Positions 24,069-40,466 of a DNA stretch of 64,000 nucleotides are shown in pieces. Each line of letters begins with the position of its first letter. Position 1 is the stretch's first letter. This DNA comes from Candidatus Tayloriibacteriota bacterium. GTDB lineage: Bacteria; Patescibacteriota; Minisyncoccia; Phycocordibacterales; PALSA-1337. The stretch covers positions 3,795 through 67,794 of the forward strand of contig PLXZ01000001.1 in the NCBI GenBank assembly GCA_003151615.1, read 5' to 3'. The position numbers and the translations under genes are program-made. The notes beneath the pieces were generated by a model. That model ran no database searches, was not told the origin of the DNA, and saw only the letters and a list, made by a program, of their open reading frames with translations.

Positions 24069-25484
24069 TTATAACTTAATCCTCTTTAACAGATCCTTGA
24101 TCGCCACCCTCTCCTGTTTGCCGAAGTCGCGGTCACGGACAGTTACCGTCGGTCCAGTTTTTTCGTCAACTTTTTCAATGGTTTCGAAGTCGACGGTGAC
24201 GCAATACGGCGTACCGATTTCGTCCTGGCGGCGGTAGCGCTTGCCGATATTGCCGTTGTCGTCGAACTCAATACCGTGGATGCCGATTGCACCGAGCTCT
24301 TTTTTGAGCATTGCGTAAATTTCGCGGGCTTTTTCGACGAGCACTGGCTTGTTTTTGAGCAAAGGAAAAACGGCAACTTTTATCGGCGCGACTTTCGGAG
24401 AAAATTTCAGATAGACGCGGGTTTCTTCCGTTGCCGCTTCGCCATCCTTTCCGACTTCACCTTTTATTATCTCTTCATGATATGCATCCGACAAAATAGC
24501 CAAAACGGTACGGTCGACGCCGAATGAAGGCTCGATGCAGTGCGGAATAAAACGCTCCTTTGTTTCTTCATCAAAATATGAAAGATCAGTGCCGGAAGCG
24601 GTCGAATGCTGGCGCAGGTCGAAATCGGTGCGATATGCGAGACCGTAGAGTTCCTTGCGGCCGAACGGGTAATCGAACTCAAAATCGATGGTGCGCTTTG
24701 AATAATGAGCTCGGTCGCCGTCGGCTACTTCCAATTCGTGGACTTTCGCCTTCGGGAGACCAAGGTCCTGCTCCGTAAAATCATGCATTTGCTCGCGAAA
24801 ATGATTGAAGACGTATTTCCAGCCGCCTTCCTTGTCCGCGTCAACGTTCGGATTGACGAAATATTCGATTTCCATCTGCTCCAGTTCGCGCAAACGGAAA
24901 ATGAAATCGCGCGGAGCAATTTCATTTCGGAAAGCTTTTCCAATCTGCGCCAAACCGAACGGCAGTTTTGGATGAAGCGAATCGAGCACATTTTTATAAT
25001 TCACGAACATGCCTTGCGCCGTTTCCGGACGCAAATATGAAATTGCTTCGTCCCCTTCCGACGCACCTACATGCGTTTTGAACATCATGTTGAACTGCTT
25101 CTCCGGACCAAGCTCGCCGCCGCAATCGGGGCATTTCTTGCTGCCGTCCTTTCCTGCCTCAATATGATCCGAACGAAAACGATGATGACATTTCTTGCAC
25201 TCGACGAGAGGGTCGGAGAAACCGCCGACATGTCCGCTCGCCTTCCAGACATTCTGATTCATTAGAATTGCGGCGTCGACGCCGTACATGTCCTCGCGGT
25301 CCTCGACAAAACGCTTCCACCACAATGTCTTGATGTTATTTTTGAGGGCGACGCCGAGAGGGCCGAAGTCGTACGTGCCAGCCAAGCCGCCGTAAATTTC
25401 GGAACCTTGATAGATGAAACCGCGGCGCTTTGCGAGCGACACTATTTTTTCCATCACGTCTGTGTTTTTTTCTGTGGTTTTCAT
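24069..25484 (-). CDS. glyQS: Glycyl-tRNA synthetase (class II, alpha2 type).
   Basis: N-terminal RRGFIYQGSEIYGGLAGTYDFGPLG and class II motifs. Length is 471 aa. Confidence 0.9.
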   Translation of the reverse strand: MKTTEKNTDVMEKIVSLAKRRGFIYQGSEIYGGLAGTYDFGPLGVALKNNIKTLWWKRFVEDREDMYGVDAAILMNQNVWKASGHVGGFSDPLVECKKCHHRFRSDHIEAGKDGSKKCPDCGGELGPEKQFNMMFKTHVGASEGDEAISYLRPETAQGMFVNYKNVLDSLHPKLPFGLAQIGKAFRNEIAPRDFIFRLRELEQMEIEYFVNPNVDADKEGGWKYVFNHFREQMHDFTEQDLGLPKAKVHELEVADGDRAHYSKRTIDFEFDYPFGRKELYGLAYRTDFDLRQHSTASGTDLSYFDEETKERFIPHCIEPSFGVDRTVLAILSDAYHEEIIKGEVGKDGEAATEETRVYLKFSPKVAPIKVAVFPLLKNKPVLVEKAREIYAMLKKELGAIGIHGIEFDDNGNIGKRYRRQDEIGTPYCVTVDFETIEKVDEKTGPTVTVRDRDFGKQERVAIKDLLKRIKL

Positions 25485-25508: not shown

Positions 25509-27464
25509 CTACTGCCCGACAATTTCATCGCCGGCGACGAACGTCGGATCGGTGCTGAAGCTCGTGGTCATCTGTTCAATTGTGCTCTGCAAATTAGCTC
25601 CCGTAAAGTCGTCGCGCGCCGTCAGCGTCGCCTGCCCTACTGTCGTCGGCGTCTGGCCGACGAAATTGACGCCCGGATTGACCCCAATCTGGAAATCAAC
25701 CTGCTGTTGGTTCGCACTGCTGCCCGTCTGTGCCTGTAGATTACCAAGATTCCAGGTGATTTGTCCATTGACCGGGTTATAGGTGATATTTGCCGTGGAA
25801 GGACTGATTTGTCCGAGCCAGCCGACGTACGGAGGCAATGTTGCGCTGACGGTGACGCCATCAACGGTCGAAGAAGTATTGTAGACAGTCCATATGACCG
25901 TGTACGTCGTCGTGGCCTGGGCTTTCGGAGGTATTGGACCGCTGTTGGCGAAAGGTCCCGTCGAACGAACAAGGCTTCCCGCCAATTGAATATTGGACGA
26001 AACCTGCACCTGACGCTGTACGGTCGAATCCACTTCCTCAGGCACATTTGTTTGCGAAATGCGGTTGGCTTTCGCGGACACGGCAACCATAATGTTCGGA
26101 TCGTTTATGGGATTTGCCTGAGTGCTCAAATTTCGCGGAGTGAAAGAGAAAGAAAGCGTCCCGCCGGCGCCGGCCGCAATGGAAGCAAGTTCCGGATTGG
26201 TAACCGTATTCCAGACGATCTCCTTATTTGTCGAATCATAATATCCCTGATTCGGATTTACCGAAGCGAGATCAAATGCATTGCCTGAAAGCTTCACGTC
26301 AACTTCGCCGTTAATGACCGCGTCGGAAGTATTGTTGAAATAGGAGACGGTCGCCGAAACAGGTTTGTTGAAAGATCCGACGTACGGACCGGTGCTGTTG
26401 TCGTTGCCCAAACTGAGAGCAAGAGAGACGAACGGCTGGGCGATTGCAACCTGCTGTGTCGTCGAAATATATTGGGTGCTGATGGTTTGCCGGGAAATAT
26501 TGGTTGATGCGTCGGAAGCAGGCACTCCGACATTGAATGAAAAGGTGCTGGTCGCCGCGTTTTGTCCCTGAAGCGTTCCTTTTATATGTATCGTGGCCGA
26601 TCCCCCGGGCGCGATGTTGCCGATATTCCAGATTGAATTGGCGCTGTCGACCGGAGCCGGCGTTGCGGAAGTGAATGTGTAGCCGAACGGATAGACTGCC
26701 TGCAGTAAAAGATCGTTGAGCGTTTCCTTCGAATTCGAAGAGACCTTGACGTCCATTTCGAAAGCTTGTCCCGAAGTGACTTGCGTAAACGAGTCGACGG
26801 AGACCGCCAGAGGCGAAGATGTTATGAGAAGGTTAAAGGCTTCCTGTTTTGAAAAAGTGGCATTCGATCCCGCGACCCGGTAATTGACCGTGACCTCGAC
26901 TGTTTTCTGGCTGTTGGTCTCTCCGAAAAATACGGCATTGATTGCCTGCTGTCCGATGCCGCCCGGCGCAATGTCGGGCAAGGTCTGCTGAAGCTCCTTC
27001 AGCTGTTCGGTCGGATTATTCGGATTTGCCGTTCCCGAAGGAAAATCGACAGTGACATCGACGACTTGAAGGGCGACGCTGTTTTTATTCTGAATCTGAA
27101 CCGTGAAATTTTCCGGAGTTCCCCCTTCCACCGATACCGGACCGGCGAGATTAATGGCAATGTTGTCGGCAGAGACGATGTCATTTCCCTTCAGCACCAA
27201 GTAGACTCCGGCCGAAACGCAGACAATGAAAAAGACCACCGAAGCGATGAGCACTTTCTTGAAAAAAGACATGCCAGGCTTTTTGTATCTCTCATTAAGC
27301 CCTTCCTCATCGCCAAAATCGTCGGCGGGATGCTGCCAGTCGGACTGGACCTCATATTGTTCGGGCTTCAGGCGAAGATGATGTCCGGCATGGACATCCG
27401 GCGCGTTTCGGGAATAAAGGTTTTCCTGCAGTTCATCTATTTTACTTTCCTCGCCATTATTCAT
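25509..27464 (-). CDS. Hypothetical single-pass membrane protein with a large extracytoplasmic beta-rich domain.
   Basis: It has a cytoplasmic acidic N-terminus, a TM helix VLIASVVFFIVCVSAGVYLVL, and ~550 aa of extracellular sequence. The start is taken at MNNGEES, because the longer ORF would overlap ndh. Confidence 0.55.
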   Translation of the reverse strand: MNNGEESKIDELQENLYSRNAPDVHAGHHLRLKPEQYEVQSDWQHPADDFGDEEGLNERYKKPGMSFFKKVLIASVVFFIVCVSAGVYLVLKGNDIVSADNIAINLAGPVSVEGGTPENFTVQIQNKNSVALQVVDVTVDFPSGTANPNNPTEQLKELQQTLPDIAPGGIGQQAINAVFFGETNSQKTVEVTVNYRVAGSNATFSKQEAFNLLITSSPLAVSVDSFTQVTSGQAFEMDVKVSSNSKETLNDLLLQAVYPFGYTFTSATPAPVDSANSIWNIGNIAPGGSATIHIKGTLQGQNAATSTFSFNVGVPASDASTNISRQTISTQYISTTQQVAIAQPFVSLALSLGNDNSTGPYVGSFNKPVSATVSYFNNTSDAVINGEVDVKLSGNAFDLASVNPNQGYYDSTNKEIVWNTVTNPELASIAAGAGGTLSFSFTPRNLSTQANPINDPNIMVAVSAKANRISQTNVPEEVDSTVQRQVQVSSNIQLAGSLVRSTGPFANSGPIPPKAQATTTYTVIWTVYNTSSTVDGVTVSATLPPYVGWLGQISPSTANITYNPVNGQITWNLGNLQAQTGSSANQQQVDFQIGVNPGVNFVGQTPTTVGQATLTARDDFTGANLQSTIEQMTTSFSTDPTFVAGDEIVGQ

Positions 27465-27483
27465 GGAAAATAGTATAACACGT

Positions 27484-28761
27484 TTATTCGCCGGTGATTT
27501 TCGTAATATCCCGAGGAAAAAACACCGCGAGACTCCATTCAAACATGATGCGAACGCGCTTTTTGAAGGAGGCGAATTTAAAAAGATACACCGTGCGCCA
27601 GAGCCACCAGGTCAACCGTCCGCTGATTTTAAGCGAGAAAATTTCGCCGATTGCGAACCATTGGCCGAGCGAAACCATGCTGCCTTTTGAATTGTAAATA
27701 AATCCTGAAAGCGGTCTGCCGGCAATTGAAGCGAGAAGATTGCTCGCCACGACTTTCGCCTGATTTTCGGCGACTTGGGCAAGCATTGGAACGGGAGTCG
27801 GATATCCCGCGGCGTCGCCAAGGACAAAAATAGTATTGAAAGTATTCGAAGCGGATGCGTCCGTCAAAACAAAATGATTGTCCACGGTCATTCGGCCTTT
27901 TACAAGAACAGGCTGCGTTCCCTCAAATTTTGGAATGATGGCCTTCACGCCGGCGGACCAGATAACGGTTGCGGCGGGAATGCTTATGTTGCCGGAAAGC
28001 GTCAAGCCGTCAGCCGAAACGGACGTGACCGAAGAATTCATGTGAAGCGCGACGCCTTCCTTTTGAAGATGCTTCATCGCGGTCTTGCGCAATTTTGGCG
28101 CAAACATTTGAAGAAGTTCCGGACCGGTGTCGACGATTGAAATTTGAACTTCGTCGGCGGGCCAGTTCATTTCGCGATAGTAACGCTTGGCAATGGCTTC
28201 GGCAAATTCGGAAAGTTCAGCAGCCATTTCAACGCCGGTTGCTCCCCCGCCGACAACGGCAAATGAAAGCAGCCGCGCGCGTTCCGCCGGATCATTCGAC
28301 AAAGCCGCTTTTTCAAAAGAATCAATCACGCGTGAACGGATCCGCGCGGCGTCAAGAAGATTTTTGAGCGGGAGCGAAAATTTTTCAGCTCCGGAGATGC
28401 CGTAATAATTCGTTTCGGCTCCGGTGGCAATGACGAGATAGTCATACAAAATCGGAGTCCCGGAAATAGTTGCGGTTTTTTTGGCGGCATCAATCGAATC
28501 GATATTCCCTTGGATGACCTGAACATTTGTTTTATGGAAAACTTCGCGGAGAGGCTCGGCGACCGATCCGGGCGTCAATGCTCCCGTCGCCACTTCATGC
28601 AAAAGAGGCGTAAAGAGAAAATAGTTTGTGCGATTGACGATTGTCAGGTCAATTTTCCCGGCGCGGACCTGCTTGAGCAAGCGCTTCGCGACGTACACCC
28701 CGCCGAAACCGGCGCCGAGAATGAGAATATGGGGTTTTGACTGCGGCATTTCTTTTGACAT
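27484..28761 (-). CDS. ndh: Type II NADH dehydrogenase / FAD-dependent pyridine nucleotide-disulfide oxidoreductase.
   Basis: Two Rossmann GxGxxG motifs (HILILGAGFGGV, AVVGGGATGVE). Confidence 0.85.
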   Translation of the reverse strand: MSKEMPQSKPHILILGAGFGGVYVAKRLLKQVRAGKIDLTIVNRTNYFLFTPLLHEVATGALTPGSVAEPLREVFHKTNVQVIQGNIDSIDAAKKTATISGTPILYDYLVIATGAETNYYGISGAEKFSLPLKNLLDAARIRSRVIDSFEKAALSNDPAERARLLSFAVVGGGATGVEMAAELSEFAEAIAKRYYREMNWPADEVQISIVDTGPELLQMFAPKLRKTAMKHLQKEGVALHMNSSVTSVSADGLTLSGNISIPAATVIWSAGVKAIIPKFEGTQPVLVKGRMTVDNHFVLTDASASNTFNTIFVLGDAAGYPTPVPMLAQVAENQAKVVASNLLASIAGRPLSGFIYNSKGSMVSLGQWFAIGEIFSLKISGRLTWWLWRTVYLFKFASFKKRVRIMFEWSLAVFFPRDITKITGE

Positions 28762-28773: not shown

Positions 28774-29397
28774 TCACAAATGGCTCTCCTGCAAAGCGGT
28801 ATTGATTTCCTTGATTGCTTTTGTTTTCATGCCGGGCATCGCCATAGTTTTAAAAAGTTCCGGAGTAAACGAATTGTTAGTTAAAAACGGAGCAAGGTCG
28901 GGTATGAGTCGAACATATCCCAGATGATGGAGGATGCGCAGCATAATAATCGGTTCGGCGACGTCAACGGAATCTTTTGCTTCGGGCGTGTCCAAAAATT
29001 GACATGCTGCATCGACGGCTTCGAACAACGTGGCGTTTTTTTCTTCGCCCTGCAACAGACGCGACAAGACTGAAAACATTCGGACGCGCAACGCATATGC
29101 GGGAGTGGACGTTGGAACCGATGTTGAAACAGTTTGCGACTGCCGGTCTTTCATCGGCTCTTTCATCGGCTCCGCGCCGACGACACGCCAGAAATCTTTG
29201 CCGCGAACGAGGGAAAAATTTGCCATGGAATAATCCTGGGCGTGATAGCGCAATTTCGACTTCGAAAGGCGTATTCCTTGCGCGATTGAAGATACCTGAC
29301 CAAGCTCCTGCGTGAAAATAAAGAGAATTTTTCCGCCCTCGCCGTGAGGCCGGCTCCCGACGACAAATCCGGGTGTTGTGTAAATGCGGTGCGACAT
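28774..29397 (-). CDS. recO: DNA repair protein RecO-like.
   Basis: The N-terminal OB-fold pattern (FVVGSRPHGEGGKILFIFTQELGQVSSIAQGIRLSKSKL) resembles RecO. Call is at family level only. Confidence 0.5.
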   Translation of the reverse strand: MSHRIYTTPGFVVGSRPHGEGGKILFIFTQELGQVSSIAQGIRLSKSKLRYHAQDYSMANFSLVRGKDFWRVVGAEPMKEPMKDRQSQTVSTSVPTSTPAYALRVRMFSVLSRLLQGEEKNATLFEAVDAACQFLDTPEAKDSVDVAEPIIMLRILHHLGYVRLIPDLAPFLTNNSFTPELFKTMAMPGMKTKAIKEINTALQESHL

Positions 29398-29420: not shown

Positions 29421-32400
29421 CTACGAAATCGACAGCCCAAAACGATACGAGTCGACGGCAATTTCCTCTCCGCCGAAAAATTCAACGGAACACGTGATGC
29501 CGGAAAGTCCCGTCGTTTTCATCAGTTCGGTTTTGTTGCGCTCGATGAAGGCTTTGCCCGTTTCGTCGGTCATGACCTTGAGTTCGGCCATATCGGATAT
29601 CGTCAAATTTTCCTTTTTGCGGAGATCCTGAATCGCGCGGATGAGTTCGCGGACATTTCCCTCTTCCTTCAATTCCTGCGTCATCGTCGTGTCGAGTTCG
29701 ATTTCATTTTCCGATGCCGCAACCGCCGACAATGAATCGACCACGCCGACCGCTTTCACGTTTATTTCATCGAGAATAAGATTCAAAAATTCCTGAGTAA
29801 GTGCGGAAGACGCCGGCGTTTTTTTGATTGAAAGTTTTGCGAGCGGCTGGCGAACATTTATTTTCGCCTTCATGCGCGCTTCAAGCGCGACAGACGCCAA
29901 GCGCCGCGTCTCGGCCATATTTTTCAGCACATTTGCGTCGATTTTTCCGGCAGAAGGCCATTGCTCGAGATGCACACTTTCTTTGATTGAATTGTGTCCG
30001 TCATTTTGCGACACATTACCCTTCACGCGCTGATATATGTCTTCGGCAAGAAACGGCATGAATGGGGCAAGCAGCTTCGCGGTCTGGAGAAGAATGTGCC
30101 GGGTCGTCGCGAGAGCCGCTTCTTTTTCCGGACCATCTTCCTTGAACCTGTCGCGCGAACGGCGAAGATACCAGGTCGAAAGGTCATCGATGAAATCGGC
30201 AAACGGACGGGCTGCGCGATCCAATTCATACGCTTCCAACCCGCGCGTAACTTCGTCGGTCAATTGCGCAAGGCGCGCCATGATCCAGCGGTCGAGAACA
30301 TGCGGCGAATCGGCAGTCGACTTGTTGTTCGCTGCAGATTCACCGGACGCCGCGGAAACATACATTTCATAAAAAGTGACAACATTTGCCAGACGGCCAA
30401 TGTGTTTTTTCGCCACTTCGTCCACGCCGCGCTCCGCAAAGGCAAATTCTTGTGCGCGGACGAGCGGTGATGCGAGCAAATAGAAACGCAATGCATCCGC
30501 GCTGTATTTTTCAACGACTGGCATCAAATCCGGATAATTCTTCTTCGACTTTGAAAGTTTTTGGCCGTCTTCGGCAAGAACGATTCCGTTGACGATGACA
30601 TTTTTGTACGGCGACTTGCCAAACAGCGCGACGCCCAAAACAAGCATCGAATAAAACCAGCCGCGCGTCTGGTCCTGGCCTTCGGCGATAAAATCGGCCG
30701 GAAAGCCTTTTGATTTTTTGAAGAGGCCGGATTTCGGTTGGAACATTCCACGCTCAGCCGGGGCCGCAGTCGCATCATTGCAAAACGGGTAATGTGCCTC
30801 GCCAAACGGCATCGAACCGGATTCGAACCAGCAATCAAAAACTTCTTCGATGCGGAGCAGGTCCCGGCCATCGGCTGTTTTCATTTTGAAATCGTCGATG
30901 TACGGTCGATGCAGATCGAGCTCGTATTCTTCATTGTGCGGAAGCGGAGTGAAATCGATACGGAACGGCTTTGCATTGAAAATAAAATGATCGGTATGTC
31001 CGCGCACATCAATAGTCTGGGCACGATTGAGACCTTGCGATGCCGCAACCAAAAGAGCAAGCGGCGAATCGTGCGAGACGATCAAAATGCGCTTGCCGAA
31101 ATATTTTTTTTCCAAATCATAAATGAAGTCGCCCATGCGCTTCTTCAAACCGACATAGTTTTCGCCATGCGGCAGCTGCGTGTCAAAGCGTTCCCCAAAT
31201 TTAAATTTTTTGAGAAATTCCTGAAATTCCATTCCGTTATAATCCCCCGCATTAAGTTCGCCAATGCGCGGGTCGACAATGATGCGGTCGGCCGGGATGC
31301 CGATTTTTTTGGCTATGATTTCAGCGGTCTCGCGCGTGCGAAGAAACGGCGATACATATATATAGTCAAATGCCTTTTTGACATTTTGCGCGGCGAGCCA
31401 TTCAGCGGCTTCAGCCACTTGTTTGCGACCGGTTTCGGTGAGATGATGCGGATTTTCGGCTTTCGAACTGATGATTCCTTTCGTATTATTTTCTGCCTCG
31501 CCGTGGCGGACCGCAAAATATTCGTTGACCGGTTTGCTGTATTTTTTGAGGTCGGCAAGAGAACCAATGACCACCGTTTCGGGCTTTTCTCCGGCCGGTA
31601 AATCACTTTCCTTCGTTCTCCACACCGGCAGAGGCGCACCCCAAAATCGCGACCGTGAAATCGCCCAATCACGCGAACCCAGAAGCCAGTTGCCGAAACG
31701 GCCCTCCCCCACTTCCTGCGGAACCCAATTCACTTTTTTATTTTCCGAAACCAATTTGTCGGTCAATTTCGAAACGGTAACAAACCACGACGAGGTGGCG
31801 TAATTCAGAAGCGGAGTTTCGCAACGCCAGCAATGCGGATACGAGTGCACGATTTTTTCCTTCGCAAACAGCGCCGGACCGAGCTTTTTGATTATCTCGA
31901 CATCGCCTTTCTGATGAGCGTCTTTTTCTTCAGGAGACGATTTTGGCTTCACCATGATGCCCGCGAAATCTGTGACTTCCTTTTTGAAGCGGCCGTCCAT
32001 GCCGACATGCTGAACGAATGGCAAATTATATTTTTTACCAAGCTCCATATCGTCTGCGCCAAATGCCGGAGCAATGTGCACGATACCACTGCCGTCAGTC
32101 GTCGTAACGAAATCAGCCGCATATATTTTCCATCCATTTTCGCGATTTTTGAGAGTTGCGTCTTTTGAATAATAACTGAAAACAGGTTTGTATGATTTCC
32201 CGGCGAGTTCGGAACCTTTCATTGTTGTGATAATTTCATGGGGCATATCCTTCAACACATGCGCCATCCGATCCTTTGCCAAAATGAATATGCCTTTTTC
32301 GGTTTTCACTTTTACATATTCAACGTCGGCGCCGACTGCCAATGCGACATTCCCCGGCAGTGTCCACGGCGTCGTCGTCCATGCAATCAGATAAACAGGC

Positions 32401-33086
32401 TGCTCCCCTAGCGTGCCTTTTTCCGCAAATTCGAATTTCGCATACACAGAAATGTCAGTGATGTCCTTGAAACCTTGATTCACTTCAAAATTGGCGAGTG
32501 TCGTTTCGCAATGCGGACAGATTTGCATAGCCTTGAAGCTTTCCGAAATCAGATTTTTGTCGTAAAGATTTTTAAAAGCCCACCAGACCGATTCGGTGTA
32601 GGTCGCGTCCATCGTGCGGTAGTCGTCCTCCATATCAACCCAGCGTCCGAGGCGTGGAATAATGGTCTTCCAATCCTGCGCATACCGCAAAACACTGTCG
32701 CGGGCGGCGGAATTGAAACGTCCGATGCCGTAATCAATGATGTCTTTTTTTGTCTTGAGACCGAGCTCTTTTTCAATCAGATTTTCTACCGGCAAGCCGT
32801 GGCAATCCCAGCCCCAGCGGCGGCGCACCCGAAAGCCCTGCATTGTCTTGTAACGCGGAATCGCATCCTTTATCGAAGTCGGCAGGACGTGGCCGAAGTG
32901 CGGCAAACCGGTCGCAAACGGCGGCCCGTCATAAAAGACAAAATCGCCCCGCGGTTTTTGAAGCGAAGCCGGCGTCTCCACCGATTTCCGGAAAATATCC
33001 TTTTCGTTCCAGAATTTCAGGATTTTTTCTTCGCGTTCGGCGTGGGCGGATTTTGGAACGGCTTGTTTTTTGTTCTCTTCGGCCAT
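29421..33086 (-). CDS. ileS: Isoleucyl-tRNA synthetase carrying a ~250-aa insertion with a histidine-phosphatase (PGAM-like) domain.
   Basis: HIGH-type motif PHFGH, editing CP1 motif WTTTPWTLP, WAISRSRFWGAPLPVW, and ...CWFESGSMPF. Between the last two lies YFAVRHGEAENN...LTETGRKQ...SPFLRTRETAEI...LIVSHD. The protein is 1221 aa, against about 940-1050 aa for typical IleRS. Confidence 0.9.
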   Translation of the reverse strand: MAEENKKQAVPKSAHAEREEKILKFWNEKDIFRKSVETPASLQKPRGDFVFYDGPPFATGLPHFGHVLPTSIKDAIPRYKTMQGFRVRRRWGWDCHGLPVENLIEKELGLKTKKDIIDYGIGRFNSAARDSVLRYAQDWKTIIPRLGRWVDMEDDYRTMDATYTESVWWAFKNLYDKNLISESFKAMQICPHCETTLANFEVNQGFKDITDISVYAKFEFAEKGTLGEQPVYLIAWTTTPWTLPGNVALAVGADVEYVKVKTEKGIFILAKDRMAHVLKDMPHEIITTMKGSELAGKSYKPVFSYYSKDATLKNRENGWKIYAADFVTTTDGSGIVHIAPAFGADDMELGKKYNLPFVQHVGMDGRFKKEVTDFAGIMVKPKSSPEEKDAHQKGDVEIIKKLGPALFAKEKIVHSYPHCWRCETPLLNYATSSWFVTVSKLTDKLVSENKKVNWVPQEVGEGRFGNWLLGSRDWAISRSRFWGAPLPVWRTKESDLPAGEKPETVVIGSLADLKKYSKPVNEYFAVRHGEAENNTKGIISSKAENPHHLTETGRKQVAEAAEWLAAQNVKKAFDYIYVSPFLRTRETAEIIAKKIGIPADRIIVDPRIGELNAGDYNGMEFQEFLKKFKFGERFDTQLPHGENYVGLKKRMGDFIYDLEKKYFGKRILIVSHDSPLALLVAASQGLNRAQTIDVRGHTDHFIFNAKPFRIDFTPLPHNEEYELDLHRPYIDDFKMKTADGRDLLRIEEVFDCWFESGSMPFGEAHYPFCNDATAAPAERGMFQPKSGLFKKSKGFPADFIAEGQDQTRGWFYSMLVLGVALFGKSPYKNVIVNGIVLAEDGQKLSKSKKNYPDLMPVVEKYSADALRFYLLASPLVRAQEFAFAERGVDEVAKKHIGRLANVVTFYEMYVSAASGESAANNKSTADSPHVLDRWIMARLAQLTDEVTRGLEAYELDRAARPFADFIDDLSTWYLRRSRDRFKEDGPEKEAALATTRHILLQTAKLLAPFMPFLAEDIYQRVKGNVSQNDGHNSIKESVHLEQWPSAGKIDANVLKNMAETRRLASVALEARMKAKINVRQPLAKLSIKKTPASSALTQEFLNLILDEINVKAVGVVDSLSAVAASENEIELDTTMTQELKEEGNVRELIRAIQDLRKKENLTISDMAELKVMTDETGKAFIERNKTELMKTTGLSGITCSVEFFGGEEIAVDSYRFGLSIS
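30852..31619 (-). other. Inserted histidine-phosphatase (phosphoglycerate-mutase superfamily) domain within the ileS ORF, about aa 490-745.
   Basis: RHGEAENN matches the PGAM phosphohistidine signature [LIVM]-x-RHG-[EQ]-x-x-x-N. A downstream SHD/His-containing segment is also present. Confidence 0.65.
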
Positions 33087-33164: not shown

Positions 33165-33312
33165 AATACATATCAAGAGTACAGGGAGGGACCTAGCCCG
33201 ATGAACTGTCAGCAACCCTTGCGAAAGCGAGAAGGTGCTACCACTAGCCCGGCAACGGGAATGATAGTTTCATCTCCACAAACTCGCATTCCCGCCGGAA
33301 GCGGGTTTTGTT
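33165..33312 (+). promoter_or_regulatory. SAM-I (S-box) riboswitch with an intrinsic-terminator expression platform, upstream of sat-cysH.
   Basis: ATCAAGAG-TACAG-GGAGGGAC-CTAGCCCGATGAA-CTGTC-AGCAACC...GGTGCTACCACTAGCC matches the S-box core (ATCAAGAGAGGTGGAGGGACTGGCCCGATGAAACCCGGCAACC...GGTGCTAATTCC). It is followed by the hairpin cccgc-cggaa-gcggg plus TTTTGTTGTT at 33281-33312. Confidence 0.75.
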
Positions 33313-33340
33313 GTTATTAGCAGAGTTAACAAAAAATGAT

Positions 33341-34426
33341 ATGTCAAAAGTAAAAAACAGCATTACGCTCACCGAGCGGCAGCTCTACGATCTGGAGCTC
33401 ATAGCAAACGGAGGATTCGCTCCCCTCTCCGGTTTTCTCAACAAGGACGATTACGAAAATGTGGTCAGCGACAGCCGATTGAAAAACGGCGAACTGTGGC
33501 CAATTCCGGTTGTTCTCGATGTCGATAGCGAAATATTTGCTTCAAAAGTCGGCGATATAATCGATCTTAAAAATAGCCGGGGCAAAAAACTGGCGACACT
33601 TACGATCGAATCAATATTCGTGCCGGATAAAAAAGTCGAAGCGAAAAATGTATACGGCACGACGGATATTTCGCATTTCGGCGTAGATTATCTCTTCAAC
33701 AGGACAAAAGACACTTACGTCGGCGGAAAAATTACGGTCACCGAAAAACCGGAGCATGCGGACTTCGCGCACATAAGAAAAAGTCCGGCCGAATTAAAGA
33801 AAATTTTCGTGGAGAAAGGTCTGAAATCGGTCATCGCCTTCCAAACGAGAAATCCGATTCATCGAGCGCATTTTGAAGTAATTACGCGCTCTGCAAAAAA
33901 GCATAATGCGCATATTCTGATTCACCCCGCCGTCGGACCGACAAAGGACGGCGACATTGATTATCCGACTCGCGTGCGGAGCTATGAAAAATTGGTCGCG
34001 CAACGCCTTCCCGATGCGACACTCTCGCTTCTGCCGATAGCAATGAGAATGGCTGGCCCGCGCGAAGCCCTCTGGCATGCAATCATCAGAAAAAATTACG
34101 GTGCGACGCATTTCATCATAGGACGCGACCATGCCAGTCCGGGAAAAGACCTCGCGGGCAAGGCTTTTTATGGCCTGACCGAAGCCCAGGAATTCGCGAT
34201 ACAATACGCCCGGGAAATTGGCATTGAAATCGTCACTTCGCCTGAACTTGTGTATGACGAAAGCCAGAACGAGTACATATCGCCGGAAGACGCGAAAGCC
34301 GTTTCAAAAATCGTCTCGATTTCCGGAACGGAATTCCGGCGGCGCCTGCGCGAAGGAGAAGAAATACCCGGCTGGTTTTCTTTTCCCGAAGTGATTGAAG
34401 AATTAAGCAAAAATAAAATAAATTAA
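33341..34426 (+). CDS. sat: Sulfate adenylyltransferase (ATP sulfurylase).
   Basis: QTRNPIHRAH and GRDHA(S)PG motifs. The start is taken at MSKVKN, since the upstream TTG lies inside the terminator T-tract. Confidence 0.88.
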   Translation: MSKVKNSITLTERQLYDLELIANGGFAPLSGFLNKDDYENVVSDSRLKNGELWPIPVVLDVDSEIFASKVGDIIDLKNSRGKKLATLTIESIFVPDKKVEAKNVYGTTDISHFGVDYLFNRTKDTYVGGKITVTEKPEHADFAHIRKSPAELKKIFVEKGLKSVIAFQTRNPIHRAHFEVITRSAKKHNAHILIHPAVGPTKDGDIDYPTRVRSYEKLVAQRLPDATLSLLPIAMRMAGPREALWHAIIRKNYGATHFIIGRDHASPGKDLAGKAFYGLTEAQEFAIQYAREIGIEIVTSPELVYDESQNEYISPEDAKAVSKIVSISGTEFRRRLREGEEIPGWFSFPEVIEELSKNKIN

Positions 34427-34432
34427 AAAAAT

Positions 34433-35098
34433 ATGATACAAAAAGAAATAGAAAAAATCAATGCGGAACTGAAAGATAAATCCCCTCTTGAAATAATTGA
34501 ATGGGCGGTCGCGCATGCGGACGGCAATGCCATTGTTTCCACAAATTTCCGGCCTTTTGAAGCGGTAATCCTGCATCTCGTCACAAAAATAAAGCCTGAC
34601 ATTCCGGTTTTATGGGCTGACCATGGATATAACCGACCCGCGACATACAGACACGCGGAGGCTCTGAAAAAATTGTTAGGGCTCAATATAAAAGCCTATG
34701 TTCCACGCATAACCGCGGCCCACCGCGACGCAATCGACGGGCCGATTCCTACTCCGGAAAATGAAGCGGAATTGAAAAAATTCAGCACCATATTCAAGTT
34801 GGAACCTTTTCAGCGCGGCATGAAGGAACTGGCACCCAAAGTTTGGATCACCGCCCTTCGCAAAGATCAAAACCCAAACCGCGCCGAAATGGATATCGTC
34901 AGCGACGACAAAAATTTCGGAGTTTTGAAGGTGAATCCCCTTTTTTACTGGAACAATCAGGATCTAGAAAAATATTTGAAGGAAAATAACCTCCCGAACG
35001 AATGGAGTTATTTCGATCCGGCCAAAGCCGACGAAAAACGCGAGTGCGGACTTCACGCCGCATGGGGCGGTGATGCAATTGCGAAAACGGAAAAATAA
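34433..35098 (+). CDS. cysH: Phosphoadenosine-phosphosulfate reductase family protein (CysH-like). It lacks the Fe-S cysteine cluster, so it is PAPS-reductase-like.
   Basis: C-terminal ECGLH motif (KRECGLH) and a PAPS_reduct fold. No CC...CxxC cysteine pairs. Confidence 0.8.
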   Translation: MIQKEIEKINAELKDKSPLEIIEWAVAHADGNAIVSTNFRPFEAVILHLVTKIKPDIPVLWADHGYNRPATYRHAEALKKLLGLNIKAYVPRITAAHRDAIDGPIPTPENEAELKKFSTIFKLEPFQRGMKELAPKVWITALRKDQNPNRAEMDIVSDDKNFGVLKVNPLFYWNNQDLEKYLKENNLPNEWSYFDPAKADEKRECGLHAAWGGDAIAKTEK

Positions 35099-35111: not shown

Positions 35112-36809
35112 TCACATCCTCTCCGGCACGGGAATACCGAGCAATGTCAGGCCGTTGCGCATGACGATTTCGAAGGCATGCGTCAAAGCCACGCGATATG
35201 GCGAGAACTCATCATCGGCGGCCACGATTTTATTATTCGCATAATAATTGTTGAAGAGAGCCGAAACAACGATAAGATACGTCGCGATATAGTGCGGCTC
35301 GCATTTTCGCGCGGAATATTCGACGATTTCGGGGAATCGATACAGAACGCGCTCAATGTCGGAGGCTTCGTCCGGATATGAATTGAATTTTTTGACGATT
35401 CCGGCAGCTGCGGCTTTTTCGCGGATCGATTTGGCCCGGACGGTTGCGTATTGCAAATAGGGGCCAGAATCACCTTCGAGAGAAACTGATTTCGTGACGT
35501 CATAAATAATGTCCTCGTCGCTTCCCTGACGGAGAATTGAATATTTAATGGCGCCGATGGCGACTTCTTCGGCAATTGTGTCGGACATTTTTTTGGCGGA
35601 ATCGCCCGTGCCCACTTTTTCCATGATTGCTTTCTTCGTATCCTCAATCAGCGACTCACCGGAAATGATGCCGCCCTTTCGCGAGGACATTTTTCCCGTC
35701 GACAGACGCAGCATGCCGTGCGGAATGTGCTGAATTTTTTTGATGTGCGAATCGGTAAATATTTTGTCGACGGCATCCATCAATACGCGGAAATAATCCC
35801 TGATTTCATTGCCGGTGATGACCACCGACAAATCATAATGGTATGTTTCAAATTTTTTCTTGACCAGGCCGAGTTCCTTCGCCTCATATGTCGGCAAACC
35901 TTCGGAATTAATGAAAACACGCGTATGGAGACCGCGATCTTCGTCGCCTTTGAAAACAATCGCACCTTCGCTTTTTTCAAAAATACCCTTATTCAAGCCT
36001 TCCTCGACAAGTTTCGCCCCGATCGGCGCAGTCTCGCTTTCGAAAAAATAATAGTCGAATTTCGTGCCGAGTCTTTTATACATTGATTCAAAACCGTTGA
36101 GCGAATCCTCCCTTCCCTTCGCGTAAATCTCATTTATTTTCGGATCTTCCTTGGAATATATTTTTTTGTTTATCGCAATTATTTCCTTTTTCGCCTCTTC
36201 ACTTTCGTCATATGCCGCGGCGCCGGCGACATAATATTCGCCGAAATGCGCGCCGGGAGTTCCTTGCAAATATCCCCAAATCGCCTTCGCAACATGCAGA
36301 CCAACATCACCTTGATAACAGGCGCGCTTGACTTCGGCTCCGGAAACATGAATGATACGCGCAATCGATTCGCCAATCGTGTTGCTCATCAAGTGGCCGA
36401 TGTGGAATTCCTTGAACGGATTAGGGTCGGTGTATTCTACGATGACTTTTTTTACGCCTGATTTTGAATATAATTCGTTGTGCCCGAATTTTTTGTCGGC
36501 GGAAATAATGTCGGAGACGCTTTGCGAGAAAAACTCGCGGGAAATGAAAAAGTTGATGAAACCGGGACCGGCGATTTCGACTTTTTTTACGTGATTGATT
36601 TGTGCCAATTGTCCGGCGATTTTTTCAGCCAACGCGCGCGGAGACATTCCGGCCTTCCGGGCGTACACAAGGGCCACATTGGTCATATAATCTCCATGTG
36701 ACAATTCTTCCGGATGTTCAACGGTAAAGGTCGCCGCATCGCCGATCGTTTCGATGCCGAGATTGCCCAATGCCTGGATGATATTTCTCTCGAGAAGCTG
36801 GCGTATCAT
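35112..36809 (-). CDS. argS: Arginyl-tRNA synthetase.
   Basis: HIGH-type motif FHIGHL, the class I ArgRS layout, and an anticodon-binding C-terminus. The start is taken at MIRQLLERN. Confidence 0.9.
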   Translation of the reverse strand: MIRQLLERNIIQALGNLGIETIGDAATFTVEHPEELSHGDYMTNVALVYARKAGMSPRALAEKIAGQLAQINHVKKVEIAGPGFINFFISREFFSQSVSDIISADKKFGHNELYSKSGVKKVIVEYTDPNPFKEFHIGHLMSNTIGESIARIIHVSGAEVKRACYQGDVGLHVAKAIWGYLQGTPGAHFGEYYVAGAAAYDESEEAKKEIIAINKKIYSKEDPKINEIYAKGREDSLNGFESMYKRLGTKFDYYFFESETAPIGAKLVEEGLNKGIFEKSEGAIVFKGDEDRGLHTRVFINSEGLPTYEAKELGLVKKKFETYHYDLSVVITGNEIRDYFRVLMDAVDKIFTDSHIKKIQHIPHGMLRLSTGKMSSRKGGIISGESLIEDTKKAIMEKVGTGDSAKKMSDTIAEEVAIGAIKYSILRQGSDEDIIYDVTKSVSLEGDSGPYLQYATVRAKSIREKAAAAGIVKKFNSYPDEASDIERVLYRFPEIVEYSARKCEPHYIATYLIVVSALFNNYYANNKIVAADDEFSPYRVALTHAFEIVMRNGLTLLGIPVPERM

Positions 36810-36923
36810 AGGAAAACTATAGCATTTTTTGGTGAGTTGGCCAAAAGAAGTCCGCGCTGTCCAAGAAAAAGCGCATCGGTTATTGAAACCGACGCGCTCA
36901 TGAAAAACCACAGGGCGAAAAAA

Positions 36924-37433: not shown

Positions 37434-38669
37434 TTAGCCCCGCAAAATCGAATCTATTTTTTTGGCCAGTTTGACGAAGTCTTTTTCAAGTTTCCCGCGC
37501 GTCGTTTCTGCGGCGGAACCGAGGCGAATACCGGATGGGTCGGTCGGAGGGCGCTTGTCAAAAGGAATTGCATTTTTATTGACGATGATGCCGGCTTTTT
37601 CCAATTTATCACTCGCCTCCTTGCCTGAAACCGCGCCGGCTCCCTTCGCATTTTTCTGACCGTTCATCCATGTGTCAACGAGAACCAAATGCGAATCCGT
37701 TCCGCCGGAAATGATTTTCCACCCGCGTTTCGTCAATTCGCCGGCAAGAGCCGTAGCATTTTTCTTGACCTGTTTCGCATATTTTTTGAAAGCCGGAGCG
37801 GCTGCTTCTTTCAAAGCCACCGCGACAGCGGCAATTTGATTGATGTGAGGACCGCCCTGGAGACCAGGAAAAACAGCCTTGTCGATTTTTGATGAAATCG
37901 AAACCGGACCATTGGTGCCATCGACATGCCGGTCGAGCCGGCTGAAAATCATAGCCGCGCGCGGACCGCGCAGTGTTTTGTGGACCGTTGTCGTGACGAT
38001 ATCAGCATATTCAAAAGGCGACGGATATTCCTTCCCCGCAACGAGTCCGGCAAAGTGCGACATATCCACCATCAAAAGCGCGGACTGACCCGTTTCATTT
38101 TTCGCCGCGTCGGCAATGTCGCGGAATTTTTTGAAATCAATGGCGCGCGGATATGCCGTAAATCCGGCGACAATGATGACCGGTTTCTCCCGCATCGCAA
38201 TTTCGCGCAATTCCCCGTAATTGAGCTGCTCCAATTTCGCATCAACACCATATGGAACCTGAACCCAGAATTTTCCGGTAGCGGAAACTTTGTGACCGTG
38301 GGTCAAATGACCTCCATGGTCGAGCGACATGCCCATGATTTTTCCTCCGGGCGGAACGAGTGCTGTGTAAACGGCCAAGTTGGCCGGCGAACCCGACAAA
38401 GGCTGCACATTCACATGCCATTTATCAGCCGACAAACCGAAAGCTTTCAATGCACGCTCAATCGCCAACATCTCGATTTTATCCACCACTTCATTGCCGC
38501 CATAGTAGCGCTTGCCCGCATACCCTTCCGCATATTTATTCGTCAGTTCCGAGCCGAGCGCATCCAAAACATCCTGCGACACATAGTTTTCCGACGCAAT
38601 CAGATTCACGACTTTTTTCTGCCGCTTTTTCTCCGCATCAATCAGTTTTTTAATGGCGGCGTCTTTCAT
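37434..38669 (-). CDS. glyA: Serine hydroxymethyltransferase.
   Basis: IASENYVS...LTNKYAEGY...GGHLTHGHKVS is the SHMT signature. Confidence 0.95.
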   Translation of the reverse strand: MKDAAIKKLIDAEKKRQKKVVNLIASENYVSQDVLDALGSELTNKYAEGYAGKRYYGGNEVVDKIEMLAIERALKAFGLSADKWHVNVQPLSGSPANLAVYTALVPPGGKIMGMSLDHGGHLTHGHKVSATGKFWVQVPYGVDAKLEQLNYGELREIAMREKPVIIVAGFTAYPRAIDFKKFRDIADAAKNETGQSALLMVDMSHFAGLVAGKEYPSPFEYADIVTTTVHKTLRGPRAAMIFSRLDRHVDGTNGPVSISSKIDKAVFPGLQGGPHINQIAAVAVALKEAAAPAFKKYAKQVKKNATALAGELTKRGWKIISGGTDSHLVLVDTWMNGQKNAKGAGAVSGKEASDKLEKAGIIVNKNAIPFDKRPPTDPSGIRLGSAAETTRGKLEKDFVKLAKKIDSILRG

Positions 38670-39633
38670 GTGAATAGCTTATCATATTTTTAATCTTGAA
38701 AGTATTTCCGTGCGTTAACATACCCAAATAAGATGCAACAGTTTCTATCTTAGGCTGATGATCAAGATTCTTAAACATTCTCTTCTTTGTAGCCGTTCTT
38801 AGAACTCTATGGTCAGGAAAATGTATCCACCCAAGGAAATCGACACCTGACGAGAACGTTTTAATGAAAACTTTATCGGGATGAAGTTTCAGGGCCAGTT
38901 TTTCTTCCAAAAATAGTGACATTTTCGGCAATATATCGAGAAGCCAATCCTTGTTCCCGCTCATCACCACAAAATCATCGGCGTATCGGATATAGTATTT
39001 TGCTTTAATCGTGTGCTTCATAAAATGGTCAAAAGCATTCATGTAGACGTTAACCAGAAGCTGCGAGGTGAGATTGCCAAGCGGTAATCCCTTTCCGTCT
39101 ACTGTACTGTGGAAACTTTTAGCCACACGTCCGATAAGCCAAATGACATCAGGATCGGTAATGTACTTTCCTACAGTATCAAGGAGTATTTTTTGATCGA
39201 TTGAAGCAAAAAACTTCCGAATATCGCACTTTAAAATCCAAAGCGTCTTTGTGTTATTCTTGCTCTCCTTTAAAGCAAAATGCTTGAATCGTTCCACTGC
39301 TCGATGTGTACCCCGTAGCTTACGGCATGAGTATGAATCATAAATAAAAGTGCGGTCAAAAAAAGGATAAAGTTCGCGATAGATTGCATGATGCAAAAGT
39401 CTGTCTCGCACACTTGCCTTATGGATATTTCGTGGCTTTGGATCAGAGATATTAAAGGCATAGTAGCCTCCATGGGTATAAGTTTTATTTTTTAAATCAG
39501 TATGTAAATCAAGAATGTTATCGGATAAACGATATTGAAACTCCTGCACATCTTTCTTGCTTCGCTTCCCTTTTAGGAATTCTTTCCACGCTTCGAGCAA
39601 ATTTTCCATAGAAATGATATTGTTGTACATCAT
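38650..39633 (-). CDS. DGR reverse transcriptase.
   Basis: RT motifs PKPRNIHKASVRDR and YADDFVV. Motif 4 is GLPLGNLTSQLLVNVYM; the xGxxxSQ form is diagnostic of DGR RTs, where group II and retron RTs have QGxxxSP. Length is 327 aa. The 3' end overlaps the glyA start by 20 nt. Confidence 0.85.
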   Translation of the reverse strand: MMYNNIISMENLLEAWKEFLKGKRSKKDVQEFQYRLSDNILDLHTDLKNKTYTHGGYYAFNISDPKPRNIHKASVRDRLLHHAIYRELYPFFDRTFIYDSYSCRKLRGTHRAVERFKHFALKESKNNTKTLWILKCDIRKFFASIDQKILLDTVGKYITDPDVIWLIGRVAKSFHSTVDGKGLPLGNLTSQLLVNVYMNAFDHFMKHTIKAKYYIRYADDFVVMSGNKDWLLDILPKMSLFLEEKLALKLHPDKVFIKTFSSGVDFLGWIHFPDHRVLRTATKKRMFKNLDHQPKIETVASYLGMLTHGNTFKIKNMISYSHERRRH

Positions 39634-39696
39634 GATTGATACAAAAATTAAGACTGATAAAGTAGCCCCCCCCCGCAGAGATTAATACCTGTTGTT

Positions 39697-40047
39697 TTGA
39701 AGCTCAAGGACACCTATGCCATATGGCAGGACTATTTAACCCATTTTCCCAAAGCTAACCGTTTTACGATTGGTTCAAAGATAGATATCCTCTTCCTCGA
39801 AGCGATCGAATACGCTTTCATCGCAAGCTATACCCATACGGCCGACAAGCATATATTCTTAAATAAAAGCATCTCTAAAGTGGATCTCATTAAGCTCCTT
39901 CTACAACTTTCGTGGGAGATAAAAGCACTCGATAACAAGAAATATATCGTGCTGTCAGAAAAATTCTCTGAAATCGGTAAGATGCTTGGAGGCTGGAAAA
40001 AGCAATTACTTAGCAAAACTCCTGAGACAAAATCTCAGGAGAAATAA
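39697..40047 (+). CDS. avd: Avd-like accessory variability determinant (four-helix-bundle / 23S rRNA intervening-sequence protein family). TTG start.
   Basis: 116 aa and basic. HFPKANRFTIGSKIDILFLEAIEYAFIASY...EIGKMLGGW resembles the Avd/TIGR02436 pattern (FPKEERYGL.SQLRRAA.S...NIAEG...L.GL). It lies between RT and TR but on the opposite strand. Confidence 0.7.
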   Translation: MKLKDTYAIWQDYLTHFPKANRFTIGSKIDILFLEAIEYAFIASYTHTADKHIFLNKSISKVDLIKLLLQLSWEIKALDNKKYIVLSEKFSEIGKMLGGWKKQLLSKTPETKSQEK

Positions 40048-40055
40048 TGATAGTG

Positions 40056-40181
40056 GCGAACAGCCAGGAAACGATAGTTGGCATTCCAATCACCGTCCCA
40101 GTTGTTGAGGTTGAGGTTCCGCTTGGAATCGTCCTTGTTGAGGTTCGGCACGTTGCGGTTGCCATTGACCTTACCAACGGA
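40056..40181 (-). repeat. DGR template repeat (TR): 126 nt, 33 adenines, AAC/AAT Asn-codon rich.
   Basis: Identical to VR except at TR-adenine positions. In-frame translation gives ...NGNRNVPNLNKDDSKRNLNLNNWDGDWNANYRFLAVR. Confidence 0.88.
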
Positions 40182-40420
40182 CCTTGTGTGAAAAACCACC
40201 CATGGCACTGCTCCCCGATAGCTTCGCGAAAGCTGCATCGAATTCGTGACATTAATCTATCACTTGGTTTCTCACACCAACTGTCTCTCTATTTTTTGAG
40301 ATCAATCCTCGAAATACTCTTTGGAAAACCTTGGTCTTCCAAACTCTCATTCCGAGGGTTGCGGACAAATTACCCAAAGCCGTGACCTTGGATTTATCAC
40401 TTGTCACTTTTCATTATATA

Positions 40421-40466
40421 TGAAAATAAAAAACCTCGCGCGACACAACTTGTGTACAACGCGAGG
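40421..40466 (-). terminator. Nested GC hairpin plus T-tract downstream of the DGR target gene. Terminator and candidate DGR target-recognition stem-loop.
   Basis: cctcgcg-[acacaa-c-ttgtgt]-cgcgagg. On the minus strand it is followed by TTTTTTATTTT. Confidence 0.6.

Follow-up and report, generated by a model that had tools for sequence, protein, structure and literature searches.

The window analysed here is a 64-kb stretch (64,000 nucleotides) of contig PLXZ01000001.1 from Candidatus Tayloriibacteriota bacterium, a tiny-genome member of the Patescibacteria, or candidate phyla radiation (CPR). The subject of this work is its gene for isoleucyl-tRNA synthetase (IleRS), ileS, in the middle of which a histidine-phosphatase domain is encoded in the same reading frame. 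A preliminary description of this DNA had reported a single 1221-aa ileS open reading frame (ORF) with the landmarks of an IleRS, and this was confirmed here: the ORF ran unbroken on the minus strand and every quoted motif was found at its place (Table 1). No second ileS was present in the 64-kb window, whose genes were annotated by profile.

The synthetase part displayed all features of its family. It matched the NCBIfam equivalog TIGR00392 (ileS) with 838.4 bits against a cut-off of 621.4, in two stretches with the insert between them, and the Pfam tRNA-synt_1 match was likewise split in two around His_Phos_1. Pfam Anticodon_1 (aa 932-1083) and DUF5915 (aa 1099-1199) followed in the C-terminal part. 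Solved IleRSs were matched by phmmer at E values of 1e-193 to 1e-206 in the PDB. Both lysines of the KLSKS signature (K843 and K846) were invariant in all of the 70 full-length fusion proteins compared, as were the TTPWT motif and the editing-domain residues G332, G334, H337 and D346 (GTGxVHxAPxxGxDD). An AlphaFold2 (AF2) model of 1200 residues reached a mean predicted local distance difference test score (pLDDT) of 88.3 and a predicted template modelling score (pTM) of 0.85. Its IleRS body superposed on structure 1ILE with a template modelling score (TM) of 0.93, on yeast 8wnd_B with 0.91, on Candida 6ldk with 0.89 and on P. megaterium IleRS2 with 0.82, the insert being left unmatched in these comparisons. 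Judged by its motifs and modelled fold, the window gene encodes an intact type-2 IleRS, for which isoleucine activation and charging of tRNA(Ile) are predicted. The type-2 or 'mupirocin-resistant type' enzymes (1ILE; P. megaterium IleRS2, 8C8U; yeast, 7D5C/8WND) were alike over the whole body, with all motifs and domains, but solved IleRSs have nothing at the insertion point, whereas connective peptide 3 (CP3) of the window protein is interrupted by an enzyme domain of ~193 aa. The zinc knuckle of CP3, kept in Thermus and in some fusion relatives, was missing from the window protein.

Limits of the insert were drawn by comparison with IleRSs that lack it. In a phmmer search of all PDB sequences, residues 4-492 of human cytosolic IleRS aligned to positions 8-517 of the query and residues 498-881 to positions 724-1114. 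Yeast and Candida IleRS broke like the human enzyme, the human and yeast alignments ending at aa 514-517 and resuming at aa 723-724; some 205 residues of the window IleRS thus stand where human and yeast have about five. P0163, a relative without an insert at the window's site, reads GSLIELQKKSQKELPRNDAGEVDLHRPYID there. According to this insert-free protein, the segment LP(H/R)N...DLHRP that follows the insert is native IleRS, so that the insert proper extends over aa ~520-712, with the junctions ...SKP/VNEYF... and ...RIDF/TPLPHNEE (slashes mark the boundaries). Earlier, ~250 extra residues had been placed at 30852-31619 (aa 490-745). An insertion is indeed located there, but its size had to be reduced to ~193-205 residues in view of the human and yeast alignments and of P0163.

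In yeast IleRS, CP3 comprises residues 459-526; ahead of it, the CP2-3 linker (453-ARDWNVSRNRYWG-465) lines the pocket for the tRNA CCA end and reveromycin (PMC7955072). CP3 of the Candida enzyme comprises residues 473-534 and is a surface subdomain with a topology that varies among Thermus, Staphylococcus and Candida (PMC7191050). By these published limits the insert lies in mid-CP3, ~35 residues past WAISRSRFWG.

The insert had been assigned to the PGAM superfamily in the preliminary description, and the profile search suggested there bore this out. Pfam His_Phos_1 (PF00300) matched aa 525-691 with E = 2.9e-31 and 109.1 bits (gathering cut-off 21.7), over profile positions 3-166 of 194. The insert alignment of the 70 full-length fusions was nearly gap-free, and R527, H528, E530, N534, R583, E610 and H672 were invariant in all of them; R527 and H528 were also invariant in further alignments A1, A2 and A4. 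The catalytic roles given in Table 1 were assigned from established knowledge of the histidine-phosphatase superfamily. As for the suggestion that a structure prediction might reveal a discrete lobe, the insert folded by itself as a full His_Phos domain according to AF2 and Foldseek. When aa 461-770 were modelled, pLDDT exceeded 90 across the insert, and it was mostly above 90 in the 1200-residue model too.

Both structure and sequence placed the domain among the short members of branch 1. The best Foldseek matches (TM 0.70-0.75, probability 1.00) were PspA (4ij5/4ij6), HFP (9mmh), GpgP (4qih/6s2q), CobC (6e4b) and PhoE (1h2e), and longer mutases fitted the insert structure worse than these short phosphatases (TM 0.58-0.69). 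In sequence searches of the PDB, short phosphatases were matched at E values of 1e-7 to 1e-11 with 19-26 % identity, PspA being the best. The short branch-1 phosphatases (PspA 4IJ5, PhoE 1H2E, CobC 6E4B/6NRU, GpgP Rv2419c 4QIH and HFP 9MMH) share the fold, the size of ~190-210 aa and the RHG...R...E...H pattern; they are free-standing, in contrast to the window domain, which is embedded in another enzyme and displays the low identity just mentioned. The cofactor-dependent phosphoglycerate mutases (dPGM/GpmA) belong to the same superfamily and have a similar start motif, RHGE(S/A)xxN, but the window domain is ~40-50 residues shorter. The mutase-specific residues after the catalytic Glu appear to be absent, as does the C-terminal tail. 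SixA is a minimal domain of ~155 aa without a cap, whereas in the insert, of ~193 aa, the helices between E610 and R650 are retained.

Comparison with NCBIfam models gave the following scores. The best match of the insert was dPGM_arch, one of the dPGM models (NF038349, NF002901, TIGR01258 and others), with 85.9 bits against a cut-off of 225. Other mutase models scored lower (GpmB 49.2 against 261, PRK01295 35.3 against 316), and TIGR01258 (dPGM) was absent among the matches listed for the insert. CobC TIGR03162 scored 66.4 bits (cut-off 162.9), PspA NF045917 57.1 bits (cut-off 350) and SixA TIGR00249 43 bits (cut-off 74.5), the last over aa 524-596 only; the bifunctional RNase H/acid phosphatase model NF005567 was matched at 68.9 bits. 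On the strength of profile, motifs and model, the insert is a complete, independently folding histidine phosphatase that belongs to the short type of branch 1, and to judge from its sequence the embedded phosphatase is apparently active.

Table 1. Features of ileS, its inserted phosphatase domain and the conserved neighbouring genes. Nucleotide positions are those of the window; aa, amino acid residues of the window IleRS.
Feature	Residues (aa)	Window positions	Strand	Basis or remark
ileS, type-2 (eukaryote/Thermus-like) IleRS with internal phosphatase domain	1221 aa	29421..33086	-	ORF, TIGR00392, AF2 model
IleRS, N-terminal part	1-519	31530..33086	-	first Rossmann half, CP core, CP1 editing domain, CP2, CP2-3 linker, first part of CP3; human/yeast phmmer alignment, query 8-517
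Inserted branch-1 histidine-phosphatase domain, short 'phosphatase-type'	520-712	30951..31529	-	Pfam PF00300, AF2, Foldseek, P0016 alignment
IleRS, C-terminal part	713-1221	29424..30950	-	rest of CP3, second Rossmann half, anticodon-binding domain, C-terminal DUF5915; human phmmer alignment, query 724-1114
PHFGH (HIGH signature)	62-66	32889-32903	-	motif located
TTPWT editing motif	238-242	32361-32375	-	motif located
WAISRSRFWG (CP2-3 linker)	474-483	31638-31667	-	motif located
VRHGEAENN	526-534		-	motif located
RHG motif	R527, H528, G529	31500..31508	-	H528, predicted phospho-accepting nucleophile
LTETGRKQ	549-556		-	motif located
SPFLRTRETAEI	579-590		-	motif located
Second phosphate-binding arginine, in SPFLRT	R583	31338..31340	-	invariant 70/70
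Predicted general acid/base, in GELNAG	E610	31257..31259	-	invariant 70/70
LIVSHD	668-673		-	motif located
Second active-site histidine, in VSHD	H672	31071..31073	-	invariant 70/70
LPHN...DLHRPYID (rest of CP3)		30903-30944	-	motif located
CWFESG	752-757	30816-30833	-	motif located
Site S2 loop, ~20-25 residues, particular to the window protein	766-790	30717-30791	-	gap against human/yeast IleRS; pLDDT <50 at aa 771-790
KLSKS (KMSKS signature)	843-847	30546-30560	-	motif located
recO, conserved downstream neighbour		28774..29397	-	Pfam RecO_N
argS, conserved upstream neighbour		35112..36911	-	Pfam tRNA-synt_1d, DALR_1

The survey of related genomes proposed in the preliminary description revealed the same single-frame fusion to be widespread. 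A genome scan with an alignment of the insert alone gave at least 439 tblastn-positive stretches, and the figures given here derive from the best 80 species-representative genomes. These included Taylorbacteria, Nomurabacteria, Campbellbacteria, Wolfebacteria, Paceibacterota and Parcubacteria; in them the match ran over the entire insert and across both junctions. A single stop-free frame of 1120-1350 aa spanned the whole IleRS in about 70 of the 80, most of the others being cut at contig ends. Sixty-seven further fused loci were found in a metagenome scan. When 1.84 billion cluster representatives were searched exhaustively by profile, 1554 matched at E <= 1e-30, and nearly all of the top 150 (E <= 1e-91) did so in one stretch through both junctions. 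In total, the single-frame architecture was seen in no fewer than 80 species-representative genomes and in over 150 clusters at 50 % identity. The related locus L147, with a catalytic core 91 % identical to that of the window IleRS, displayed identical junctions, and GC content was even across both junctions of the window gene. Since identical junctions occur in hundreds of independent assemblies, L147 included, a chimera or frameshift was excluded. A missing PGAM match, or a frameshift or chimera at 30850-31620, had been named earlier as what would speak against the domain; neither was observed.

The fused architecture is a clade-level trait of Paceibacteria/Parcubacteria. It had been called unusual, which holds insofar as it is not known from model organisms or from the searchable literature, but in a large CPR clade it is the norm. 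The insert had further been considered unlike an intein for want of an HN junction. No Hint, intein or LAGLIDADG endonuclease family was matched in the window IleRS (Pfam, E <= 0.01), and the absence of an intein can be maintained; an HN dipeptide does exist just past the C-terminal junction, in LPHN (aa 715-718), but it is native IleRS sequence and is followed by Glu.

Two observations concern the quality of related database entries. Locus L001 (ENA ERZ1286166 contig_5361) had SHMT, ArgRS and IleRS each split into several ORFs and is probably a frameshift-rich long-read contig; in protein databases, broken 'His_Phos + tRNA-synt_1' proteins that stem from assemblies of this kind raise the apparent number of partial genes. 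Protein P0027 (Moranbacteria GW2011_GWF1_36_4, 'isoleucyl-tRNA ligase, partial') carried ~130 unrelated residues directly before FVPLPHNEDYELDLHRP, in which a hydrophobic stretch is combined with a basic segment rich in helices; at this point of CP3 there is either another kind of insert or a split of the gene.

Selection on the insert was estimated from the ratio of nonsynonymous to synonymous substitution rates (dN/dS) against L147. The ratio was 0.132 in the insert and 0.054-0.057 in the catalytic core; the anticodon-binding and C-terminal part gave 0.125, which places purifying selection on the insert at the strength of that on the anticodon-binding domain. Distances of insert and core were correlated (Mantel r = 0.42, reached by none of 999 permutations); the internal benchmark, core against anticodon-binding domain, gave r = 0.57.

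Mapping of domain copies with phmmer and hmmsearch allowed several insertion sites to be distinguished. Site S1a, that of the window, held a single copy in ~145 of 175 proteins. In P0104, P0106 and P0136 tandem copies at S1a and S1b flanked the DLHxxxVD element. S2 copies lay between CWFESGSMPYA and ADFIAEGxDQTRGWFY (P0167, P0172 and P0118), and S3 copies between the catalytic body and the anticodon-binding domain, alone in P0163 and combined with other sites in P0071, P0088, P0167 and P0172. Six contigs, up to 1.06 Mb long, carried the S2+S3 form. At S2, where the window protein has its own loop, the insertions of P0167, P0172, P0118 and P0165 consisted of a second His_Phos or a P-loop module. 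The latter was observed in P0165 (ENA contig, 11.6 kb), which has His_Phos at CP3 and, at aa ~735-870 between CWFESG and DQTRGWF, a kinase-like module with the sequence GACGAGKTT (AAA_18 E = 1e-7, AAA_33 E = 4e-6; weak Zeta_toxin, CPT and APS_kinase). In a neighbour-joining tree the domain copies formed an unresolved, star-like pattern, and copies within one protein were not mutual nearest relatives.

The domain was also found in valyl-tRNA synthetase (ValRS). P0160, a ValRS recovered from two independent contigs (L169 and L170), carries the domain four times: one copy lies in CP2, and the other three follow the CP2-3 linker. A search from its junction yielded 27 more ValRS-type proteins with the domain; in ~25 of these it occupied the CP3-equivalent site, ~30 residues past DWCISRQ and ~20 residues ahead of DTWFSS. 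The catalytic set was kept in the extra IleRS copies as well as in the ValRS copies. Nearest neighbours were within-group for 20 of 20 ValRS-borne and 145 of 146 IleRS-borne domains, and identity between the groups was 27 %, equal to the family background. ValRS thus seems to have acquired the domain independently, at the equivalent site. The ValRS carriers (P0160 and P0183-P0214) came from Gracilibacteria, Parcubacteria, Doudnabacteria and Colwellbacteria, and many of their gene calls were just 340-680 aa, even on long contigs. Among the five synthetases of the window, IleRS alone had such an insert; ArgRS, MetRS and the two class-II enzymes were free of it.

The closest free-standing homologue was P0016, a protein of 188 aa from Moranbacteria that aligned with the insert end to end. 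Its gene was located directly upstream of an insert-free ileS of 956 aa, on the same strand, the order at this locus (L082) being argS - His_Phos - ileS - NUDIX - x - recO. The window has the order argS - [riboswitch/sulfate cassette, other strand] - ileS(His_Phos) - recO, and L001 has argS - ileS(His_Phos) - recO. Thirteen free-standing homologues were gathered from a metagenome sample: eight were directly upstream of ileS, and four of these eight were divergent, with 35-40 % identity to P0016. In L100 and L128 the TAA stop of the phosphatase gene was followed within one codon by the ATG of ileS, and in L115 the two genes overlapped. Both complete ileS genes adjoining a free-standing phosphatase (L082 and L115) were insert-free. 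The more distant free-standing homologues P0017, P0022 and P0025 were not adjacent to ileS. Some CPR lineages read UGA as sense, and a single gene read through a recoded stop was considered for L100 and L128; it was discarded, the codons being TAA and then ATG. No phosphatase was fused to the N-terminus of the synthetase in any of ~300 proteins, though this would be the mutationally easiest merger.

Among ~155 related loci, 92 had argS upstream, and 82 had recO downstream on the same strand, 55 of these within 200 nt. The NUDIX hydrolase gene of L082 (9943-10482) overlapped the insert-free ileS by 4 nt at its 3' end; as a conserved partner it was rejected, none of the 155 loci having it. Another conserved member of the neighbourhood was a protein of 677 aa that has a hydrophobic segment at its N-terminus and a single DUF11/CLIPPER-type repeat (window 25509-27542, minus strand), homologues of which were found downstream of ileS-recO in 94 related loci.

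Between argS and ileS, on the opposite strand, the window carries a sulfate cassette (33167-35098, plus strand). It is composed of a S-adenosylmethionine (SAM) riboswitch (RF00162, 59.6 bits, 33167-33269), an ATP sulfurylase gene (33308-34426) and a gene of the 3'-phosphoadenosine 5'-phosphosulfate (PAPS) reductase family (34433-35098). Such a sulfate-assimilation cassette was unexpected in a CPR-type genome and was absent from all ~155 related loci, for which reason 3'-phosphoadenosine 5'-phosphate (PAP), considered via this cassette as a substrate of the inserted phosphatase, was rejected.

Further features of the window are a likely diversity-generating retroelement (38650-41288, minus strand) and an accumulation of aminoacyl-tRNA synthetase (aaRS) genes. 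The retroelement has a 327-aa reverse transcriptase (Pfam RVT_1, 38650-39633) beside a repeat pair, 40107-40181/40665-40739, that is 85 % identical; all 11 of its 11 mismatches were T>N on the plus strand, i.e. A>N on the coding minus strand. Changes were also mostly T>N in a second repeat pair (40056-40158/40560-40662), and the variable repeat copies lay in the 3' end of the ORF 40530-41288. The five aaRS genes are those of MetRS (just 480 aa), a class-II ProRS/ThrRS-type enzyme, ArgRS, IleRS and an Asp/Asn/Lys-type enzyme, the four besides ileS being located at 19435-20877, 24069-25484, 35112-36911 and 49934-51226.

As to the meaning of the fusion, we lean towards the view that the insert acts in cis as a phosphatase accessory to the synthetase, with which it would be linked in function, and that it derives from an internalised operon partner of ileS. 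The simplest reading of the gene-neighbour data would be that such a partner was internalised, the reverse direction being possible too. The phosphatase would have begun as a separate operon partner and would later have moved into CP3, with the result that one polypeptide carries both enzymes. By the chemistry of the family, H528 would attack a phosphomonoester held by R527, R583 and H672 and give a phospho-histidine intermediate, and E610 would protonate the leaving group and then activate water. The position of the insert seems to matter. An accessory role in cis, rather than that of an unrelated passenger, is suggested by the operon link specific to IleRS, by the absence of N-terminal fusions, by the independent use of CP3 in IleRS and ValRS and by the proximity of CP3 to the linker of the CCA-end pocket. 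As possible substrates the preliminary description had proposed a nucleotide, a tRNA end with a 2',3'-cyclic or 3'-phosphate, or a regulatory phospho-metabolite; this range is narrowed slightly towards small or nucleotide-type compounds. The leading, still tentative candidate is a nucleotide-type phosphoester made or met at the synthetic site, either an adenine-nucleotide by-product or a phosphorylated tRNA 3'-terminal nucleotide.

Several observations weigh against this view. The inserts were mildly acidic (median isoelectric point 5.9) and had no general charge signature of RNA binding; the enzymes nearest to them in structure all have small molecules as substrates, and the insert remained below every curated NCBIfam equivalog cut-off. 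The use of several sites (S1a, S1b, S2 and S3) and of two to four tandem copies argues against a need for precise placement with respect to the synthetic site, which would suit a passenger enzyme as well as a coupled one. Five of the 13 free-standing homologues had no ileS inside 7 kb. The order argS - ileS - recO is moreover conserved generally, so that adjacency of phosphatase and ileS could partly reflect inherited gene order rather than functional coupling.

In a rival reading, the domain would be an ordinary small-molecule metabolic phosphatase, acting for example on phosphoserine or on a sugar- or cofactor-phosphate, that merged in these minimal genomes into an essential and constitutive gene for economy of expression and has no link to aminoacylation. 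Its nearest relatives in sequence and structure (PspA, the riboflavin-pathway HFP, GpgP, CobC and PhoE), the acidic to neutral domain surface and the multiple sites and tandem copies, which suggest that geometry is irrelevant, are all in keeping with a passenger of this kind. CP3 is structurally variable and hence a permissive surface subdomain (PMC7191050), and IleRS has taken up unrelated modules elsewhere, as in the ileS_w_GNAT family and in the P-loop module of P0165. The association with ileS is nevertheless specific and recurrent, comprising operon neighbours in divergent lineages, at least four IleRS sites and CP3 of ValRS, and the other four aaRS genes of the window lack the domain. 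Loss of a single stop codon would have sufficed for the N-terminal fusion that was never encountered, and one metabolic enzyme needs no two to four catalytically intact copies per protein. An unlinked passenger was considered rather unlikely.

A specific version of the coupled model, in which the domain deblocks tRNA 3' ends, is improbable. It draws on the location of the insert in CP3, straight after the linker lining the CCA-end pocket, and on the independent use of the same site in ValRS. Blocked ends of this sort do exist: toxSAS effectors pyrophosphorylate tRNA 3'-CCA ends, which blocks aminoacylation, and can be tRNA-specific (10.1101/2021.04.30.441581, PMC11559606). The phosphatase and P-loop kinase-like module joined in P0165 recall the kinase/phosphatase enzymes of end healing, and the RNase H/acid phosphatase of NF005567 provides a precedent for His_Phos fused to a nucleic-acid enzyme. 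To our knowledge, however, no histidine-phosphatase family member acts on RNA 3' ends, the test for a basic surface was negative, and site S3, at the anticodon-binding junction, is distant in sequence from the acceptor-end pocket. Exposure of these genomes to such toxins is without support, and deblocking offers no reason why IleRS and ValRS alone should need the activity. The same low expectation applies to a bolder formulation: that class Ia synthetases of the CPR gained a third catalytic site besides those of synthesis and editing, convergently in CP3 of IleRS and ValRS and from an operon-partner gene, which might deblock or repair the tRNA 3' end (3'-phosphate, 2',3'-cyclic phosphate or toxin-added 3'-pyrophosphate) or break down a phosphorylated inhibitor or by-product where the active site opens.

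It is very improbable that the fold was recruited as a structural, tRNA-binding or ligand-sensing module without turnover: appended non-catalytic domains are common in aaRS evolution and a phosphate pocket could act as a sensor, but pseudo-enzymes normally lose catalytic residues, and here the full catalytic set, E610 included, was invariant in the 70 fusions and kept in extra copies and in ValRS. An artefact or selfish element (chimera, frameshift, intein or mobile insertion without host function) can be practically dismissed, since the superficially intein-like presence at many sites and in many copies of essential genes, with HN near the C-terminal junction, is outweighed by the single-frame genomes and metagenome loci, the uniform GC content, the junctions shared with L147, the lack of Hint and endonuclease families, the native HN followed by Glu, and an insert that is under purifying selection and co-varies with its host gene.

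Domain accretion in synthetases and phosphatases has precedents, and the combination of IleRS and phosphatase is not categorically new in this respect. The CP1 editing domain of class Ia aaRSs is itself an inserted module. Along with it, the GNAT-bearing IleRS and the mycobacterial RNase H/acid-phosphatase fusion (Rv2228c type) are comparable cases of accretion. The model for IleRS with an N-acetyltransferase (GNAT) domain, NF040702, matched only the IleRS parts of the window protein, with 326 bits against a cut-off of 1999. We know of none among these precedents that puts a phosphatase in CP3 of an aaRS. A literature search that included work on Patescibacteria IleRS and on CPR domain insertions found no paper describing a phosphatase inside aaRS CP3, and a 2026 survey of domain insertions names aaRS hosts and no phosphatase. 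Database names of these proteins are generic, e.g. 'class I tRNA ligase family protein' or 'histidine phosphatase family protein, partial', and such generic or split annotation makes the feature invisible in metabolic reconstructions of the CPR.

Aminoacyl-tRNA synthetases belong to the best-conserved enzymes known, and domains added to them in particular lineages have repeatedly brought new biology to light, such as editing, signalling and resistance. In the window, an apparently active enzyme of another class is lodged within the catalytic body encoded by the sole ileS, in a large bacterial radiation that is uncultivated. The invariant catalytic residues, the occurrence of the phosphatase as an operon neighbour, at no fewer than four sites and in tandem, and its independent gain by ValRS in the same structural position suggest that a phosphatase and the synthesis of Ile- and Val-tRNA have been selected to function as partners, a pairing not known in model organisms. 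The identity of its substrate could reveal a new step of translation quality control or repair, or else metabolism consolidated into the essential genes of minimal genomes.

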